A DNA stretch of 42,816 bases from a virus, in IMG/VR virus record IMGVR_UViG_3300031920_000251, positions 1 through 42,816 of that record. The stretch is one strand, 5' to 3'. This document shows positions 8,393 to 36,025 of the stretch, piece by piece; positions within the stretch are counted from its first letter, which is position 1; each line of letters opens with the position of its first letter. Below the pieces are notes generated by a model, which was not told the origin of the DNA, made no database searches, and saw only the letters and a list, made by a program, of their open reading frames with translations. The translations under genes and the position numbers were made by a program.

Positions 8393-11218
8393 ATGGCAAT
8401 AAACCAAACAGAAATAAACCCAAAAGAACCAACAAGATATTATAAGCCTGATGGCGATTCAGTTGTCTTGCAAGCAGGACAGCATTTTTTAGGCGAGGGC
8501 TGGACAACCGAAAATCCTTTGAATGCTCCTGCTCCTACTCCGCCGTCTCCTGCTGATACTGCTATAAATAATGAAACTGATAATATTATGGGCAGTTCAA
8601 CAGGACCAAGAGCGGAGGCAGACGAAACAAAAAAAAAATTAGAGGGTATGGCAAATGGAGATGGGCTTGAAGATGATGATACTTATGAAGATTTTTACGA
8701 AACAGATGAGATAAATAATTTAACAACTGAAACAGATTTGGCTTTTGATAATATGAAAAACTTATTAGATAGCGAGAGTGATTTAACAGACGAAGATTTA
8801 AAGGAGATGGAAGAAGCAGCGGATAGAGCGGGAAGTGCTTATGACCCTTTGATAAAAGAAGCACAAGAAGCAAAAAGATTAGGAATGCCAAAAGCGATTA
8901 TAAGAGCAGGAGAGCGAGGCGGATTTATGTCAACACAATTCGCAGGTGCTGCCGCCTTACGAACAACAGAGGGTGAAACTTTTACAGGAGAGGGCGGACA
9001 ACTCAATCAAATAAAATCTCAATATGATGACGCTATTTTTAAAATTAAGGCTGCGAAATTAGAAGCGGAACGAGCGGCGAAAGCGGCGGCTAAAAGAGCG
9101 TTATTAACTGGAAAAAAAGAAGACACGGAGAGAGCTGTTTTGCTTTATGATATTGCAAAACAAAAACAAGCGGAAGCATTGGCAATGGTTGATAAGAAAA
9201 TACAGTTTAATGATATGGTGACGGAAAGAGATAGGCAGGAAAAAATATTTACACAGATGCAAATAGACTGGGGAATTTCAGCCGACAATGAAGAATTTGC
9301 AAAAGAGCAAAGAGAATATTTAACTACTAAATTATGGGAAGATAGGCAGATAAATTTAAGTAAAACTTATAGAGGAATTACAGAAGAAGAGGCTGGAAAT
9401 TATTCAGAAGATCAAGTGTTAAAAGTTAAAAATCCTATTCCTATTGTTGGCGAGGACGGCAAAACGACTTACGAAGAAACTTATTGGTTAAGGGCTCTTG
9501 GAAGTTCTGATGATGTCGCACTGATACAAGAGATGAAAAAAACTTATCACGATGTTAAAATTGATGAGTTTTCTGATACTTATGATGAGGCGTGGAATAG
9601 AATTGTGAACGAAAGCAAGATTTATTTAGATGAGCAGAAATTGACAGAAAAAGATTATCAATTTATAAAAGCCACTGGCGACCAAGCAGGCGGAGTTTTT
9701 GACCCTGCAACTGGAGAATTTACACCTACTGATATTCCGTCAGAAAGTGTTGACCTGATAACAGGAGAACCGAGGAAAGAAGCAATATTAGCACAAATTA
9801 GCAATGGATTATTAACAAAAGGAGATGCGACAGATATTAGAGATGAGTTTGCTGATGACCCTGATTTTTTAGCAAAAGTAACTAAGGCGTTTAGCGACCC
9901 AAAAAATAAAGCAGTCAGTGAAACGCAAGCGGGTAAGTATAATGCACCTGCTAATATTACAAGAAGACAATTAGATGAGATTATTCAAACAAGACAAGAT
10001 AATGGTTTTGGAAATAAAACTTTTCAAGGAGTAGGAAAAAAAGAATATCAAAATATAGTAGACTGGCTTGAAATGGAAAAAGATATAAATTCTATGAGAG
10101 CATTGAAAGAGGGCGGCGATTTTATAAAAACATTAAGTCAAGATGAAAAACAAAGAATATTTGATGATTTTAAAGATGACTTAGGGGTTGATAGTGTTGA
10201 AGAATTAGACAATATTGGAAAAGCGAATACTGGTCCAGTAGCAAGTAGGGCATTAAAAGCGAAAGAACTTTTTGGTGCTGGAAGTGAAAGACTTATTGCG
10301 ATAGATATTATTTCTGGAAAATATAAAACTGCTTTTATGAAAGAAATTTCAGGAGTTGCAATTTCAGAACCAGAAGCGATAAGACTTGGTAGTTTAGTTC
10401 CGAATATAGCATTACAAGATAAAAGATTTAAAAAATCATCAAGTGATGCACAAGATTCATTAAATACTAATTTATTAACTGCCGCTAATAGTTTTGGTTT
10501 TAATACAATAGATGAAATGAGAGAAGCAACAAGGAAAACAAGGGCAGGAGAATACTTTGATTTAGATAATCAAGTTTTAGAAAAAGCGATGAAAAAAGTT
10601 TCAAACGATAAAGTTAAGACAGACATTACAAACTATAAACAATCAATTCAAAGTGCAATAGATAGTGAATACACCAGTGCAGAGATTATTGATTATCTTA
10701 AAAATGACCCGAGTGTGAATGAAATGATAAATTCAGCAAAACAATATAATTATAATGATGATGAGATAATAGAATATTTACAAAATGAAAGTGGAAATTT
10801 TAGTATGGTTGGTGGCGACACAAATGAAGCCTCAAAGATTAGAGAAGCCATAGGACAATATGAGAGCGGTGGAAATTATCAAATTCGTGGCAAGGAAATT
10901 CCAAGTGGACAATATAAAGGTGAAAGAGCAATGGGAAAATATCAGATAATGCCGGGAAATTTACCGTCTTGGTCAAAACAAGCATTAGGAAGAATTGTTA
11001 GCGAAAAAGAATTTTTAAATAATCCAGATATTCAAGATAAAATAGCAGAATATAAAATGGCAAAAATATACGAACAATATGGAACAGTTGAAGATGTTGC
11101 AAGTATTTGGTTTTCTGGTCAGCCAATGGCAAAAGCAGGCAATAAAAAAGATGTATTAGGAACAAGTGTGCCAACTTATATTAAGAATATTCAATCAATT
11201 TATAATAAATTAGGATAA
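8393..11218 (+). CDS. large internal-virion/ejection-type protein with a C-terminal lytic-transglycosylase-like domain
   Basis: 941 aa. The C-terminal motif IGQYESGGNYQIRG...AMGKYQIMPGNLPSW is typical of lysozyme-like/SLT folds (catalytic Glu in ES, GxYQ). The long charged, coiled middle region resembles ejection or tape-measure-like proteins. Confidence 0.6.
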   Translation: MAINQTEINPKEPTRYYKPDGDSVVLQAGQHFLGEGWTTENPLNAPAPTPPSPADTAINNETDNIMGSSTGPRAEADETKKKLEGMANGDGLEDDDTYEDFYETDEINNLTTETDLAFDNMKNLLDSESDLTDEDLKEMEEAADRAGSAYDPLIKEAQEAKRLGMPKAIIRAGERGGFMSTQFAGAAALRTTEGETFTGEGGQLNQIKSQYDDAIFKIKAAKLEAERAAKAAAKRALLTGKKEDTERAVLLYDIAKQKQAEALAMVDKKIQFNDMVTERDRQEKIFTQMQIDWGISADNEEFAKEQREYLTTKLWEDRQINLSKTYRGITEEEAGNYSEDQVLKVKNPIPIVGEDGKTTYEETYWLRALGSSDDVALIQEMKKTYHDVKIDEFSDTYDEAWNRIVNESKIYLDEQKLTEKDYQFIKATGDQAGGVFDPATGEFTPTDIPSESVDLITGEPRKEAILAQISNGLLTKGDATDIRDEFADDPDFLAKVTKAFSDPKNKAVSETQAGKYNAPANITRRQLDEIIQTRQDNGFGNKTFQGVGKKEYQNIVDWLEMEKDINSMRALKEGGDFIKTLSQDEKQRIFDDFKDDLGVDSVEELDNIGKANTGPVASRALKAKELFGAGSERLIAIDIISGKYKTAFMKEISGVAISEPEAIRLGSLVPNIALQDKRFKKSSSDAQDSLNTNLLTAANSFGFNTIDEMREATRKTRAGEYFDLDNQVLEKAMKKVSNDKVKTDITNYKQSIQSAIDSEYTSAEIIDYLKNDPSVNEMINSAKQYNYNDDEIIEYLQNESGNFSMVGGDTNEASKIREAIGQYESGGNYQIRGKEIPSGQYKGERAMGKYQIMPGNLPSWSKQALGRIVSEKEFLNNPDIQDKIAEYKMAKIYEQYGTVEDVASIWFSGQPMAKAGNKKDVLGTSVPTYIKNIQSIYNKLG

Positions 11219-27531: not shown

Positions 27532-27891
27532 ATGCCAGAAGATACGCGATTTAAAAAAGGACAGTCAGGAAACCCAAGCGGACGCCCGAAAGACAGTTTT
27601 TCTTTGATAACATTGCTTAAACAAGAATTACAAAAATGTCCAGAAGGAGAAAATAAGAAGACTTACGCTAAAATAATGGTAAAAAAAATGATTGATGAAG
27701 CAATGAGAAAAGGAGACGACCAAAAATTAAAACTTATTTTCAATTATTGCGAAGGCTTACCAAAACAAACTGTAGACCATACTTCACAAGGAGAAAAAAT
27801 AGAAAACAAAACGCTTATTCAAATAAACAGTATGGATGAAAAATCTATAGACGATGAATTTCAAAAAAAATTAAATCAAAATGATGAATGA
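27532..27891 (+). CDS. small-terminase candidate (DUF5681-like N-terminus)
   Basis: FKKGQSGNPSGRPKD is the hallmark motif of a family commonly found just upstream of terL. The gene overlaps the terL start. Confidence 0.55.
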   Translation: MPEDTRFKKGQSGNPSGRPKDSFSLITLLKQELQKCPEGENKKTYAKIMVKKMIDEAMRKGDDQKLKLIFNYCEGLPKQTVDHTSQGEKIENKTLIQINSMDEKSIDDEFQKKLNQNDE

Positions 27892-29452
27892 TAAACTAAT
27901 AATTCCAACAAGCATTTTAGAAAATAAAAGATATAGATTAAATATTTTAAACAAGGCTGAGAATGATGTTGTTTTACAGGAAATAATAAAGAAAAAATGT
28001 TCATTAGATATAGAATTTGCTTGGGATTTGTTTTTTTGGACTTATGATGATCGCGAAACTAATCCGAATGTTCCTTATATTTTATACCCAAAACAAAGGG
28101 ATTTAATAACTGAATTAAATAATAATCTTATTTCATCAAGGCAAGGCGAGAAAGTTAATTTTATTCTTGATAAACCTCGTGCAGTTGGAGCGACTTATAC
28201 TGTAATGGCTTGGATTTTATACCATTGGTTGTTTTCGAAAGGATTTACGGCAAGAGTTGGCAGCAGAAAAGAGGATTATGTTGACAAGAGAGGAGAGAAA
28301 GACACATTATTTGTTAAGTTAGATTATATTTTAGATAGATTTCCGAATTGGTTGAAACCAAAATATCGTAGGGCATCTATGATGTTGGATAACGAAGAAA
28401 GCGGAAATACGGTCTCTGGCGAGAGTGCAAATCCTAATTTCGCGAGAGGAGGACGAAAATCAGTGATATTATTTGATGAGTTAGGATTTTGGGATTGGGC
28501 AGGAAGCAGTTGGGAGAGTGCAGGAGAGAGTTCAAATTACAGAATAGCGATGTCAACACCGCCCGATACAGGAAAAGATAGTTATTTTCATAAATTATTG
28601 ATAGGAGAAAAAGGGAGAATAAGAAAATTTAATTTTGACTGGCAAGATGTTCCCGGTAGAGATGATAAATGGTTTAAAGAAGCAAAAGAAACAAAATCAC
28701 CAGAAGAATTTGCGCGCGAAGTATTGAAAAGTTATGATGGAACGACAAAAGGAAAGGTTTACGCGAACGATATGAGGTTGGTGGAATTAAAAGAAATTGA
28801 ATATACAGGACGATTACCGCTTTATATTGCTTGGGATTTCGGACTTGATAGCGTTGCGATGGTATGGATACAGGCAGATTTATCAAATAAGAAATTCTAT
28901 GTTATAGATAGTTATATAAATTCAAATAAAGCGATTGATTTCTTTGTTCCTTTCGTGAATGGGACAATAAAATCTGGGATAGAAAAATACAATGAATATG
29001 AGTTGAATATGATAATGCGCCATAAATTATGGAGTAGGACAATAACACATTACGGAGACCCATCAGTTAAGCAAAGACATATTAGTTCAGGATTAAGTAC
29101 AAAAGATATTTTAGAGGATAAGCATAATATTTATGTTCAGAGTAAAGATTGGTTAGGCAGGAAATGGACTGATATTAGAGACATTACACGAACATTTTTC
29201 AGAGATTTAACTATAAATACTAAATTATGCGAAAGTTTTATTTCAGCGTTAAGGATGTCAAGATACCCAGAACGAGCAGAGAGAAGCCAAGCAACAAGCG
29301 AACCATTGAAGCCTATTCATAATTCAGATAGTCATTATCGTTCCGCATTTGAATTCTTTTGTGATAATATCTATGACGAGGAAGAAATTAAAATAATTAA
29401 AGAAGACAGAAATAATAACCAGTCCAACGAATTATTTATTGATGATGTGTAA
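27881..29452 (+). CDS. terL: terminase large subunit
   Basis: ATPase Walker A-like DKPRAVGATYT, Walker B VILFDELGFW, coupling motif MSTPP. Nuclease-domain acidic motifs IAWDFGLDSVAMVW, YGDPS and NSDSHYRSAFEF. Confidence 0.88.
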   Translation: MMNDKLIIPTSILENKRYRLNILNKAENDVVLQEIIKKKCSLDIEFAWDLFFWTYDDRETNPNVPYILYPKQRDLITELNNNLISSRQGEKVNFILDKPRAVGATYTVMAWILYHWLFSKGFTARVGSRKEDYVDKRGEKDTLFVKLDYILDRFPNWLKPKYRRASMMLDNEESGNTVSGESANPNFARGGRKSVILFDELGFWDWAGSSWESAGESSNYRIAMSTPPDTGKDSYFHKLLIGEKGRIRKFNFDWQDVPGRDDKWFKEAKETKSPEEFAREVLKSYDGTTKGKVYANDMRLVELKEIEYTGRLPLYIAWDFGLDSVAMVWIQADLSNKKFYVIDSYINSNKAIDFFVPFVNGTIKSGIEKYNEYELNMIMRHKLWSRTITHYGDPSVKQRHISSGLSTKDILEDKHNIYVQSKDWLGRKWTDIRDITRTFFRDLTINTKLCESFISALRMSRYPERAERSQATSEPLKPIHNSDSHYRSAFEFFCDNIYDEEEIKIIKEDRNNNQSNELFIDDV

Positions 29453-29460
29453 AAAATATT

Positions 29461-31365
29461 ATGGCAAAAGAAAACAAAAAAAAGAATATACTTGACGATG
29501 ATAGAAAAGAAAAAATAGCACAAATATTAAGTGCTGAAGAAATGGAATATTATGGGAGATTACTTGAAGATATTAATGACGCACAAACAGCAAGGGACGC
29601 TGTTCATCCAGAGTTCGATGATCTTGATTACTACACAGATTTTGTAAAAAATAGTAGGACTGTCAATTCTTACAGGCAGAGGAGATTAAACACAGGGGAA
29701 GTTGCTTTAAGTTTAGGGACGACTGAAAAAAAGGTTGAAAGTGTATTTAATAGCATTTTACAGTTTAATTATAAGCCGACAGTGATGGCTTACAATGAAA
29801 ATGACAGTGAAATAGCAGACTTAGGCGATGATGTTAGTGATATTGTCAAGAGAACGAATGAAATTGAAAGCGATGAAAACATAATGCAAGACGCTTTAAG
29901 AGAGTTATTAACTCAAAGATGCGTCTTCATGAAAGAATATTTTGAAAACGGAATGTGCAAGAAAAAGTTATTGAATGGCTTACAAATCTATTTAGGAGAT
30001 ATAACAATTCCATATTATAGATTCAAAGAACAGCCTTATATCATAGAATACGACAGAATGCGATATGATGTTGCAGAAAAAATCTATGGAACTAACGAAA
30101 ACTGGCAATATGTTAGCAAAGGAATTATAAAAACAGAGAATAGTTTTGATTACAGAATGCACAAAACACTTGAAGATAACGAGGTTGAGGTTATAACTTA
30201 TACGAATAGGCTCAAAAAACATCAACAAATACTCGTAAACGGCGTAATGATGAATAAGATTGACGCTAAATTGCCGTATAAGCACGATGGATACAATATT
30301 ACGATGTCAGGTGGCAAGCAGATCAACGGAAATTTTGCTTATTCAAGACCGTTAGTATCTCAAGCAAGAATATTACAAGTACTTGAAACGCAAATATTCA
30401 AGTCTTTAATCAGAAAAATGAACCAATCTATTGAACCACCGATTGGAGTTAAGACTAATAAAGTGTTTTCAAGGGATATGTGGAACCCTGGAAATATAAC
30501 ACAAAAAGTTAAAGAGGGTGATTTTACAAGACTAACAGACCATAACGGAGTAAACACTGGTGAGATAGCAATGTACCAGTTAGTTAAAGGTAGTGTAGAA
30601 GAATATATTAGCGCTGGCAATCTGCAACAAGGACTGAAAGGACAAGGCAAGATGACGGCAACGGAAACAATGATATTACAAAAAGAGGGAATGAAAATGC
30701 TTGGTAGCATATTTACTTCTTGGATTTTATTGATAAGAGAGATGACATTTTTAAGGATTTATAATATTTTTGAGAATTATAATAAGCCAGTAAAACAAAA
30801 ATATGATAAGTTTTCAGATAAAATATATAATATTCATAAGAAATTCACAGTATTTGACGCGAAACTTGATAATAATAAAATAGGTAAAAAGATAATTCAG
30901 TTCACGGATCAAAAGATAACACCAGAAGACAATCAAAAACTATACGAAGAAGAGGAACGACAAGAAAAATTAGGCAATAAAGTCAGATATAAACTAATAA
31001 ATGTTAAGCAAGTAAATCAAATACGAACTAATTTCTTTGTAGCAGTTGAGCCGAAAGAGCGAGAGGGTAGCGAATTAAGGAAAGTAATGTTTGAAAATCA
31101 ACTTAATCAAGCGGCAGGAATAATGAATTTAACAGGAAGGAAATTGAATAGTGACCAGATTATTGAGAATTATGAGCGAAATTGGCGAGTTAAAGATATA
31201 TTTATGCCACAAGAGAAGCAACAGCAAGGCGGAGGAGACGACGCTAATAAACTTAATTCAATGATTAAAGATTTAGATGGTGGTGGTGGTGAAATACAAA
31301 AAGCAGGAATGCAAGCAAGCGGAAAACCGCAAAAACCATCAATAAATACTTTGGCTAACGCTTAA
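29461..31365 (+). CDS. portal protein candidate
   Basis: 634 aa, immediately downstream of terL, with the usual size and position for a portal. No motif-level proof. Confidence 0.6.
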   Translation: MAKENKKKNILDDDRKEKIAQILSAEEMEYYGRLLEDINDAQTARDAVHPEFDDLDYYTDFVKNSRTVNSYRQRRLNTGEVALSLGTTEKKVESVFNSILQFNYKPTVMAYNENDSEIADLGDDVSDIVKRTNEIESDENIMQDALRELLTQRCVFMKEYFENGMCKKKLLNGLQIYLGDITIPYYRFKEQPYIIEYDRMRYDVAEKIYGTNENWQYVSKGIIKTENSFDYRMHKTLEDNEVEVITYTNRLKKHQQILVNGVMMNKIDAKLPYKHDGYNITMSGGKQINGNFAYSRPLVSQARILQVLETQIFKSLIRKMNQSIEPPIGVKTNKVFSRDMWNPGNITQKVKEGDFTRLTDHNGVNTGEIAMYQLVKGSVEEYISAGNLQQGLKGQGKMTATETMILQKEGMKMLGSIFTSWILLIREMTFLRIYNIFENYNKPVKQKYDKFSDKIYNIHKKFTVFDAKLDNNKIGKKIIQFTDQKITPEDNQKLYEEEERQEKLGNKVRYKLINVKQVNQIRTNFFVAVEPKEREGSELRKVMFENQLNQAAGIMNLTGRKLNSDQIIENYERNWRVKDIFMPQEKQQQGGGDDANKLNSMIKDLDGGGGEIQKAGMQASGKPQKPSINTLANA

Positions 31366-34071: not shown

Positions 34072-34483
34072 ATGGAAATGAGACTTATTAGCTCACTAAA
34101 ATTTCCTGAATTGACTGATTTGATAACTAAAAGTTTTGTTGATTGTCAGGATTTTGAGGAAAAAACAGTAGAGCAATTACTAATACGACATTCTATTCCC
34201 AATGGAACTGGAACATCACGAAGATTTGACGAATACGATACTGAAAGTTATGCAAAGAATATGGACGAAGGAGAAGACGCACATAAAGCAAGTGTAGGAC
34301 ACGGATATTATAAGACAATGTATCTCTCACGCAGAGGGATTGAAATTGATATTACAAAAGTAATGAGAATGACAGGAAAAGACGCAGAAGTAAAATCAAA
34401 AATTACTTCTTTAAATTATTATTGCCCTGAAAGAAAAGAATTAGATTTAACTCATTCATTCTTTACATTCGCGACCAGTACCT
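34072..34483 (+). CDS. major capsid protein, exon 1
   Basis: The ORF reads ...LDLTHSFFTFATST. Exon end placed at T34483 by U:G-terminated P1 pairing with the internal guide GGGTACT at 34548..34554. The remaining 20 codons of the tracked ORF are intron read-through. Confidence 0.65.
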
Positions 34484-35447
34484 TAGCAAAAATAATACTT
34501 GAAATAAAGACTTGTTTTTTTAAGCCACAATTTCAAGCGGTATAATGGGGTACTTTAAATCTCTTCTGATATACGGCGAACGCTGAGATGCCAACGCCTA
34601 GCAAGGTTAATTACCGGCTACAGAGACTGAGCGAAGAGACACTATTGAAAATAGTGATGCAACAGTCCGAACTTATGGGAAATGAACCATAAGAGTTAGG
34701 CAGAAATGACCTAACTATGAACATTGAAAATTATTAAATAATTCTAAGAGTTCCTTTCTATTAGATATTATAAGATTGCTAAATAATAATTTTTTGGCGA
34801 AATCTCTTATCAACATTTCATATTTTATATGATCTGATGATGATTTAAAAAGTTTAAGATTATTTATATCATTGTTTAATTTATTTCCGTCCATATGATG
34901 TATTTCTTCTCCTTTATTCAAAAATCTTTTAAGATGTTTTTCCATAATTATTATATGTTCTTTTACATAAGGTCTTTTATTTTTTAGTCTGTGTATTCTT
35001 GGATGATTTGGACAATAAATACTTTTATATCCATTAGATAAAAAAGAATTTCCTTCAAAACTATGATGAAATTTTCCAGACATTCTTTCATTTCTGCTTC
35101 TTATTTTAATATTAAATCTTTTTAACCATTTTAATATTATAGATGTTGATACATTACATTTTTTTGCAATCATTGTAGTAGTTTTATTAGAATATTCTTT
35201 TTCCATCCATTTTTTATCCATATATGGTTTTTTATCTAAAAATGTATAATCAGTTGACGATTTTATTTTTATTTTATTTTTTTTTAAATGATTTAAAATT
35301 GTAGTTTTGTTCACATTACATTCAGAAGCAATAGATAAAGAACTTTTATTTAATATATTATATTGGTGACTTAACCATTTAATATTATTATATTTTTTCA
35401 TAAATTTGTTTATTTAATAATTATACAATTCTTCATATAACAATATG
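34484..35447 (+). mobile_element. group I intron (about 964 nt) in the major capsid gene
   Basis: P1 AGTACCT/GGGTACT. P10 CATATACC (35448..35455) pairs with GGTATAATG (34539..34547), contiguous with the P1 guide. P3 34561..66/34634..39, P6 hairpin 34599..34620, P7 GACTG 34625..29/CAGTC 34663..67, P8 CACTAT/ATAGTG, P9 34672..78/34687..93. Terminal G at 35447. The exon frames join exactly. Confidence 0.7.
34715..35401 (-). CDS. HNH homing endonuclease, encoded antisense within the intron
   Basis: EEIHHMDGNKLNNDINNLKLFKSSSDHIKYE is an HNH motif. Two N-terminal HTH-like repeats (KWLSHQY...TTILNHLKK and KKWMEKEY...TSIILKWLKR). Confidence 0.8.
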   Translation of the reverse strand: MKKYNNIKWLSHQYNILNKSSLSIASECNVNKTTILNHLKKNKIKIKSSTDYTFLDKKPYMDKKWMEKEYSNKTTTMIAKKCNVSTSIILKWLKRFNIKIRSRNERMSGKFHHSFEGNSFLSNGYKSIYCPNHPRIHRLKNKRPYVKEHIIIMEKHLKRFLNKGEEIHHMDGNKLNNDINNLKLFKSSSDHIKYEMLIRDFAKKLLFSNLIISNRKELLELFNNFQCS

Positions 35448-36025
35448 CATATACCGATCAAGACGGTAAAACTATTGATGTAACTGGAGGAGACAGTTTA
35501 GCTCCTGCATATTCAGCACATACTTTAAAGCATTCAGCGTCTACTTGGAGAAACAGAATTTCTGGAGACCCTGTTTTCTCAACTGGTGGGTTGGAACTTG
35601 CTGAAACATTAGCAAACACTAATATTCTTAATAACTTCGGACACACAAGAAGCATTAACTTTAATGTTATCTTTTCAGGAAAAGACGCAAATACTTGCAG
35701 ACTTATCAGAAAGGCTATTTTCAGTGAAGGAGATGTTGATGAAGTTAATCCAAGTATTAAGAATACTTATACAGGGTTCCGACATGTTATATTGCCAAAT
35801 TTAGCGACCGATGCTAATGGAGCCTATGACAGCACAAAACGAAGATGGTGGGGAATTCTGGCAACGGAAAAATGGCAAGCACATTTTGGAGTATGGGAAG
35901 AAAACAATATGAATACTCCTCATATTGATCCTCATAATGATAACTATGTTTATGGTTCAAGAATGAGTTATGGAAGATGTTTAACTTCCGCTCGTGGAGC
36001 GATCTATTCTTGCCCAACTTCATAA
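35448..36025 (+). CDS. major capsid protein, exon 2
   Basis: The frame is open from 35441. Joining T34483 to CA35448 gives ...FATST-S-YTDQDGKTIDVTGG... and a 329-aa product (412 + 578 nt = 330 codons). The TTG start at 35591 in the track is internal. Confidence 0.65.

Follow-up and report, generated by a model that had tools for sequence, protein, structure and literature searches.

In phage LittleE the capsid gene, gene 13, is interrupted by an intron that carries an endonuclease gene, gp14, on the bottom strand, and its splicing was established by reverse transcription PCR (RT-PCR) and N-terminal sequencing (Pope et al. 2013; PMC3706429). Antisense endonuclease genes that are expressed have also been described in the nuclear ribosomal DNA introns Dir.S956-2 of Didymium iridis and Dsq.L2066 of D. 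squamulosum, in the latter within P9.2 (PMC9548176). Here we analyze a stretch of viral DNA of 42,816 nt (IMG/VR record IMGVR_UViG_3300031920_000251, positions 1 to 42,816; hereafter the window) with a predicted major capsid gene that is split by an insert bearing, in the opposite orientation, a gene for an HNH homing endonuclease. A mobile group I intron in codon 138 of the capsid gene, with the HNH gene in antisense, is very probably the best overall explanation of this locus. It is a new example of a known element type whose layout was already shown in LittleE, and it involves no new mechanism.

Two plus-strand ORFs as halves of one predicted capsid gene

A first-pass annotation, made from the sequence alone, had read two plus-strand open reading frames (ORFs) as the two halves of one protein, and our comparison with homologues supports this reading. 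The 5′ ORF, 34072..34545, encodes 157 aa and stops at 34543-45; within it, the predicted exon 1 (34072..34483, plus strand) comprises codons 1-137 and the first base of codon 138, ending with U34483. Exon 1 matches residues 1-137 of intact homologues, and DNA homology to two uninterrupted alleles, L001 and L002, ends where exon 1 ends. The 3′ frame, which ends at 36025, is open only from 35441, after a TAA at 35438-40. The predicted exon 2 (35448..36025, plus strand) runs from the last two bases of codon 138 to the stop codon and matches residues 138-329 of intact homologues. We found no ATG, GTG, or TTG in the exon 2 frame before 35591, where a TTG provides the first possible start.

Joining 34483 to 35448, as had been proposed, yields 990 nt or 329 codons reading ...FFTFATST-S-YTDQDG... 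(peptide across the junction, ...FATSTSYTDQDG...; predicted spliced exon junction, ...GCGACCAGTACCT|CATATACCGATC...). A search with the joined 329-aa protein returned 251 relatives, and among the best 120 of these nearly all are uninterrupted, with lengths of 329-345 aa and 97-100% query coverage. The joined protein aligns with >100 intact homologues without an indel and continuously over the junction. In a 20-sequence alignment the junction lies inside a well-conserved block, TFATSTSYTDMDG, with 0 gaps in any sequence. The capsid exons compared with L001 have a ratio of nonsynonymous to synonymous substitution rates (dN/dS) of 0.06, indicating strong purifying selection.

Intron boundaries and intron-less alleles

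The predicted group I intron occupies 34484..35447 on the plus strand, is exactly 964 nt long, ends with omega-G35447, and contains both a ribozyme core and the endonuclease gene. The first-pass annotation had placed its end at the same G and had called for a search for intron-less homologues; the two that we found, L001 (88% nucleotide identity) and L002 (77%), lack the intron at the exact site and fix the same limits. By BLAST and alignment to these alleles, homology ends at 34475/34472 and picks up again at 35450, such that the intron-less ...GCGACTTCTACTTCTTATACAGATCAAGAC... corresponds to ...GCGACCAGTACCT[964 nt]CATATACCGATCAAGAC... in the window; the intron-less site of L001 reads ...TTCGCGACTTCTACTTCTTATACAGATC.... 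At the protein level alone the junction is movable by one base either way. In group I introns a U closes the 5′ exon and a G closes the intron, and only 34483|35448 gives this combination. A second intron-containing allele, L126, likewise has a U before its intron and a G as the last intron base. Intron-minus alleles (L001, L002) and intron-plus alleles (the window and the 65%-identical L126) thus coexist at one site.

The sequence around the junction is itself divergent. Compared with L001 (3404-3420), 6 of 16 nt differ (34476-34491 / 35448-35455) against a background of 7.8%, and the changes include a serine codon, TCT to AGT. Immediately before the splice-site U, both intron-containing alleles have ACC and both intron-less alleles have ACT. 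The divergence from L001 fits exon adaptation to P1 pairing, co-conversion, or target-site divergence, and may be an indirect hint of cleavage near the insertion site. At the other end of the intron, just 5′ of the 3′ splice site, TTCATATAACAA (35432-35443; 2962-2973 in L126) is identical in the two intron-containing alleles despite an adjoining 31-nt indel, and it includes CATATAAC, a near-copy of the start of the 3′ exon, CATATACC.

A compact group I ribozyme

A canonical group I core with P1 and P10 had been proposed by eye for the intervening sequence, and every helix named at that stage is indeed present. P1 would form between AGUACCU (34477..34483), the last 7 nt of exon 1, and GGGUACU (34548-34554), with U34483 opposite G34548 at the splice site. 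The 64-nt loop of P1 contains a hairpin (34498..34537) in which CUUGAAAU at 34498-34505 pairs with AUUUCAAG at 34530-34537. The internal guide sequence (34539..34554) consists of the P10 guide, GGUAUAAUG at 34539-47, followed by the P1 guide at 34548-54; the P10 guide can pair with CAUAUACC at the start of the 3′ exon (35448-55) through 8 bp with one bulged A. The ribozyme core extends from J1/3 through P9.1 (34551..34716, plus strand) and contains P3 (34560-66/34633-39), P4 (34575-78/34595-98, GGCG/CGCC), P5 (34582-83/34590-91), P6 (34599-602/34617-20), P6a (34605-07/34613-15), P7 (34625-29/34663-67), P8 (34640-45/34651-56), P9 (34672-78/34687-93), and P9.1 (34695-700/34710-15). The core had also been described as GC-rich compared with its surroundings, and GC content is indeed 0.39-0.45 over 34500-34699 versus 0.14-0.26 across the HNH region.

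Relatives of the core were found by blastn against phages, which gave short matches in unannotated DNA of Brochothrix phage A9, where the match lies between fragments of a ribonucleotide reductase gene, and of Alicyclobacillus phage KKP_3916. The segment common to these phages and the window is P7′-P9-P9.1. The pattern GTCCGAAC-N10-30-GGCAGAAATG retrieved >120 viral contigs, many of which share the compact order of the window: J1/3 UUAAA; P3; UGAUUGAC; P4; a P5 mini-hairpin of 2-3 bp, CGCUGAAAUGCC; AAC; P4′; P6/P6a; GAGAGACU(A/G)AG; P3′; P8; AUGCGA(U/C)AGUCCGAAC; P9; and P9.1.

We built a covariance model, R1, from 19 non-redundant compact relatives, leaving the window out and writing the structure by hand with 38 pairs; P7 was omitted because it forms a pseudoknot. 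In the family alignment (n=19), 95.5% of cells are paired, compared with 33-41% in controls slid by 1-3 columns, and for 33 of 43 pairs both partners vary; none of 500 shuffles reached the observed values. P7 is nearly invariant across the 19 relatives, with one A-U to G-C switch. Searching the 42.8-kb window with R1 gave a single match, 34551..34716 on the plus strand, at the full length of the model (144.8 bits, E 5e-32), a score within the range of the training members (139-176 bits). In this alignment there are 2 non-canonical positions in the 38 pairs and no helix is disrupted. The helices read by eye coincide with those of R1, which adds P4, P5, and P6a. Altogether, family covariation and the R1 score support the assignment of the insert to a compact, phage-borne subfamily of group I introns, as judged from sequence.

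The second intron-containing allele, L126, was reached through a truncated homologue, P0111, and is laid out like the window, with a 157-aa ORF, an HNH_3 gene of 228 aa on the minus strand, and a 193-aa ORF. Its intron is 997 nt long and lies at the same codon. Identity between L126 and the window is ~65% in the exons, ~70% in the core, and 71.5% in the HNH gene (66% for its protein). P1 is AGUACCU/GGGUACU in the window and UCUACCU/GGGUAGA in L126, that is, two compensatory double substitutions. The hairpin in the P1 loop is compensated as well (CUUGAAAU/AUUUCAAG in the window, CAGAAUAU/AUAUUCUG in L126), and minimum free energy (MFE) folds of the 5′ region of each allele alone recover P1 capped by this hairpin. 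P3, P4, P6, P8, and P9.1 also vary by compensating changes between the two alleles.

The antisense HNH endonuclease gene

The HNH gene (34715..35401, minus strand, 228 aa) lies antisense to the capsid gene in the 3′ peripheral region of the intron, where the first-pass annotation had placed it. Its product matches PF13392 HNH_3 (E 6e-8, residues 149-188, motif EEIHHMDGNKLNNDINNL...H) and phrog_7545, 'HNH endonuclease' (E 4e-23), and has two helix-turn-helix (HTH)-like repeats around residues 19-46 and 66-105; no solved structure for it was detectable by sequence search. Because the 228-aa ORF is intact in both the window and L126 with a Nei-Gojobori dN/dS of about 0.17, we take it to be a genuine gene kept by purifying selection. 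The last base of P9.1 falls within its stop codon (34715-17). Right after this stop codon on the minus strand, the P9.1 complement (34694-34716) is scored as a terminator-like hairpin with 8 pairs and a weak T-run, and it could act as the 3′ end of the HNH mRNA.

It is reasonable to expect the HNH gene to depend on a promoter of its own. On the minus strand, a TATAAT precedes the HNH ATG by 18 nt; L126 does not conserve it, having TGTAAT at another spacing, and we do not claim it as a promoter.

A 13-nt inverted repeat brackets the HNH gene, with a 5′ arm at 34729..34741 and a perfectly complementary 3′ arm at 35410..35422 (both plus strand); read on the minus strand, the latter precedes the HNH start codon by 9-21 nt. 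When the two 67-nt flanks were shuffled, a repeat this long appeared in ~0.5% of cases, and none of ≥13 nt was found in ~1,500 random segment pairs from within the HNH ORF. Both arms are identical in L126, and an MFE fold computed with the ORF deleted contains the stem. We tentatively suggest that it is a P9.2-like closure that returns the 3′ splice site to the core. A different pairing, between the P9.1 loop and a 10-nt complement in the HNH ORF (34700-09 / 35088-97), is unmatched in L126, where both the loop and the ORF differ in sequence, and was treated as chance.

Capsid identity and phage lineage

The joined capsid protein had no match in Pfam or PHROGs, a few of its homologues match PF25209 Phage_capsid_4 weakly, and a profile search of PDB with the capsid alignment found just a capsid chain, at E 0.6. 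Since these searches gave little, capsid identity was settled by fold comparison. We modeled P0002, an intron-less homologue of equal length that is 82% identical to the joined protein, from a 59-sequence alignment, and the AF2 model has a mean pLDDT of 86 and a pTM of 0.81. All 50 of the 50 matches listed by Foldseek for this model against PDB are capsid (major head) structures; the top match is HK97 (1ohg, E 3e-11), and the others span phages, an archaeal tailed virus, SaPI1, and a gene transfer agent. Genes for the large terminase (TerL, 27881-29452) and a portal-like protein (29461-31365) lie upstream. The earlier call of a major capsid gene is thus supported, and the joined protein is predicted from the homologue model to be an HK97-fold major capsid protein.

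A tblastn search of the capsid protein against 50,697 GenBank phage records returned no match. The capsid family has >250 metagenome relatives and no PHROG. The window therefore comes from an uncultivated phage lineage, and the host of the intron is an uncultivated tailed phage.

Distribution of the ribozyme family and its endonuclease genes

Among 84 fetched viral loci, R1 gave 141 matches. The compact subfamily, which includes the window as well as L012, L018, L031, L032, L035, L036, and L088, has no P2 and no P7.1/7.2, a conserved GGCAGAAAUGACC P9.1 loop, and no RF00028 match at E ≤1-10. The ribozymes closest to that of the window interrupt major head genes: L035 3482-4216 (minus), L036 4425-5126 (plus), and L088 14-715 + 1423-1683 (minus). 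The head genes of L035/L036 (phrog_1357, E 1e-54) and L088 (phrog_267) belong to capsid families unrelated to that of the window, and the intron lineage of the window seems to target capsid genes repeatedly. Several loci have 4-7 R1 matches within 2-3 kb (L044 2532-4481; L029 6015-8612; L100 5693-7863; L085 4413-6404; L113 3383-5697), and in these genes one group I intron seems to follow another at intervals of a few hundred bases.

Endonuclease genes that abut P9.1 in antisense orientation were observed in at least four lineages among the R1 loci: the window and L126 (HNH_3); L006/L106 (a 159-aa HNH_3 protein, 32% identical to that of the window); LittleE (LAGLIDADG_3); and L104 (HNH_repeat type, 380 aa). 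Sense endonuclease genes 3′ of P9.1 outnumber them and are of the Endonuclease_7, GIY-YIG/NUMOD3, LAGLIDADG_1, HNH, HNH_3, and HNH_repeat types. The antisense ORFs of LittleE (L125, 1805-1826) and L104 (1335-1355) are unrelated, and both end in ...GQVISA; the last codons and stop of gp14 and of the L104 ORF are the complement of the conserved P9.1 hairpin, such that both ORFs run into the core. The L106 intron apparently has two endonuclease genes, a sense ORF with a LAGLIDADG motif that runs into the core (8768-9214, plus) and the antisense HNH_3 gene after P9.1 (9285-9791, minus).

Proposed mechanism and alternative explanations

We propose that the late primary transcript would fold into a ribozyme in which P1 pairs the end of exon 1 with the guide at 34548-54 and the core extends from P3 to P9.1, with the HNH region looped out 3′ of P9.1 and possibly closed by the 13-bp A/T stem. 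Two guanosine-initiated transesterifications would cut after U34483 and G35447 and give an mRNA for the 329-aa HK97-fold capsid protein. The HNH_3/HTH endonuclease would be made from its own minus-strand transcript and is presumed to nick or cut capsid alleles that lack the intron, near ...ACTTCTACT|TCTTATACA..., after which recombinational repair would copy the intron and endonuclease gene into the cut allele (homing). These steps are predictions, including splicing itself, when and from which promoter the HNH gene is expressed, where its product cleaves, and what the P9.2-like stem does.

Several results weigh against this proposal. At the gathering score, Rfam 15 cmscan of the whole window gave no match, and cmscan of 34400-35520 at E ≤10 gave no Intron_gpI match, so the locus failed the standard test, a search with RF00028, which the first-pass annotation had also recommended. 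We judge this result to be a false negative for the compact subfamily. RF00028 missed all compact relatives tested and scored the larger relatives at 28-42 bits (A9, 28.4 bits; LittleE, 30.7 bits; KKP_3916, 41.7 bits, E 5e-8), below the gathering score of 50 bits; because the compact relatives are also missed while the family covariance model succeeds, we attribute the miss to a gap in sensitivity. The core of the window has a P5 of only 2-3 bp and lacks P2 and P7.1/7.2, and it might depend on a protein cofactor for catalysis. P10 is strong in the window but shrinks to 3 bp in L126, and we do not regard it as a conserved feature. The 13-nt stem is all A/T, invariant between alleles, and without covariation, and because it overlaps the HNH C-terminal codons and 5′ leader its conservation has other possible causes. 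A sigma-70 scan around the HNH gene found 19 sites versus 15.6 expected, with no promoter above background. Finally, splicing of the window intron is a prediction, and ligated exons were shown only for its distant relative in LittleE (PMC3706429).

A different history would have a free-standing HNH cassette break the capsid gene, with the two halves translated apart and assembled together and the ribozyme-like sequence inactive or irrelevant, similar to phage genes that mobile endonucleases have split by inserting into them. The L126 halves are called as separate genes by gene callers, and L126 has an in-frame ATG 11 nt into exon 2. In the window, however, exon 2 could start no earlier than the TTG at 35591, and its product would lose 48 residues, many of them invariant. 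Additionally, the insert has a full-length core that scores as high as the training members, the P1 pairing to the exon end that is kept by compensation would be purposeless without splicing, and the same layout splices in LittleE (PMC3706429). We consider a functional split gene extremely improbable. The related readings of a split protein, bypassing, or an intein were rejected, given that the intervening frame has stops, exon 2 lacks a start, and 964 nt is too long for bypassing; to our knowledge this length far exceeds known bypassing distances. The element could instead be real and decayed, splicing poorly or carrying a dead HNH gene, in a crippled phage or a pseudogenised capsid gene. The minimal P5, the missing Rfam match, and the uncultivated source would all suit decay. 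However, no helix is disrupted, the bit score equals that of the relatives, and the minimal P5 is the norm of the family and covaries; the HNH ORF is intact in two alleles whose proteins are 66% identical, with a dN/dS of 0.17, and the exons have a dN/dS of 0.06 versus L001. Decay is thus very unlikely, if slightly less so than the split gene, and the element is real, well formed, and probably mobile.

The intron reading leaves room for the antisense orientation to be functional in its own right, with the minus-strand HNH transcript timed or terminated by intron features, or with its pairing to the capsid pre-mRNA modulating splicing or capsid output. Endonuclease genes of three types, spread over at least four lineages, lie against or overlap P9.1 in antisense, the P9.1 complement forms a terminator-like hairpin directly after the HNH stop codon, and the flanks 34714-34742 and 35410-35424 are identical in the diverged (65%) L126 allele. 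On the other side, sense genes at the same spot are commoner and come from many families, such that orientation looks unconstrained, the T-run is weak in the window and absent in LittleE, and the needs of the HNH coding sequence and of the ribozyme can account for the conserved flanks. A functional orientation is therefore unlikely, although less so than decay. A broader version, in which antisense placement is adaptive and recurrent in the family through convergent transcription into the ribozyme, an mRNA 3′ end formed by the P9.1 complement, expression decoupled from late capsid timing, and duplexes that tune splicing or output, appears somewhat more doubtful still. If it were true, the separate acquisition of genes from three endonuclease families at this antisense position would be due to selection, not chance. 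Nothing in our analysis requires a regulatory role for the arrangement.

Significance and comparison with known systems

For annotation, a capsid gene of this kind would be called as two orphan ORFs and a 'free-standing' HNH gene, as occurs in L126. The standard Rfam scan is blind to a compact and abundant subfamily of phage group I introns that is often found in capsid genes. The window also adds, beyond the mycobacteriophages, a second and unrelated phage lineage of low GC whose most highly expressed late gene would depend on splicing and host a convergent endonuclease gene. The site just 3′ of P9.1 emerges as a recurrent landing spot for endonuclease genes in either orientation.

Compact introns elsewhere in IMG/VR (L035/L036/L012, L088, L023, L039) have the same core layout as the window and share its motifs: J1/3 UUAAA, UGAU..AC, P5 CGCUGAAAUGCC, GAGAGACU[AG]AG, AUGC.A[UC]AGUCCGAAC, and P9.1 GGCAGAAAUGACC. 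L035/L036/L012 are likewise without P2. These introns differ in that most have no endonuclease gene or a sense one (a LAGLIDADG gene after P9.1 in L035, an HNH-like ORF in the P1 loop of L088), and they interrupt other capsid families at other sites.

The classical phage introns, such as those of T4 td/nrdD, SPO1 (I-HmuI), and Pf-WMP3 (I-PfoP3I), are self-splicing and have an endonuclease looped from a peripheral element (PMC2988022, PMC3428280). In T4 nrdD (sunY) the ORF is 3′ of the core, as in the window, and HNH nicking enzymes are a common cargo of phage introns. However, the classical introns carry sense endonuclease genes, reside in nucleotide-metabolism or replication genes, and have larger IA2 ribozymes that are seen by Rfam.

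The Didymium introns have an antisense gene in the P9 periphery with its own opposite-strand promoter, and the intron still self-splices (PMC9548176). They belong to the group IE introns of eukaryotic rRNA genes, and their enzymes are of the His-Cys box type, with spliceosomal introns and polyadenylated mRNAs (PMC9548176). Additionally, separation of nucleolus and nucleoplasm limits antisense interference there, and a phage has no such separation.

The closest match remains LittleE. Antisense orientation had been singled out as the unusual point of this locus, and it is real, but it has a precedent in the LittleE capsid intron. Both introns reside in an HK97-type major capsid gene, have an exon U and an intron G at their ends, and carry an opposite-strand endonuclease gene immediately 3′ of P9.1 that runs back towards the core. 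Both share the GGCAGAAAUGACC P9.1 loop, and LittleE scores 53.5 bits (E 1e-9) with R1, making it a distant member of the ribozyme family of the window; its locus has the same ...AUAGUC...P9...GUCAGGCAGAAAUGACCUGAC P9.1 motif, and the gp14 antisense run begins inside P9.1. Presence and absence of the intron are polymorphic among relatives in both cases. The two differ in cargo, with gp14 being LAGLIDADG_3-like and the window protein being HNH_3 with HTH repeats, and in the ribozyme: that of LittleE has a longer P5 and inserts resembling P7.1/7.2, which make it larger, and RF00028 sees it weakly. The capsid families are unrelated and the insertion sites are different, and LittleE has a high-GC genome compared with ~30% GC in the window.

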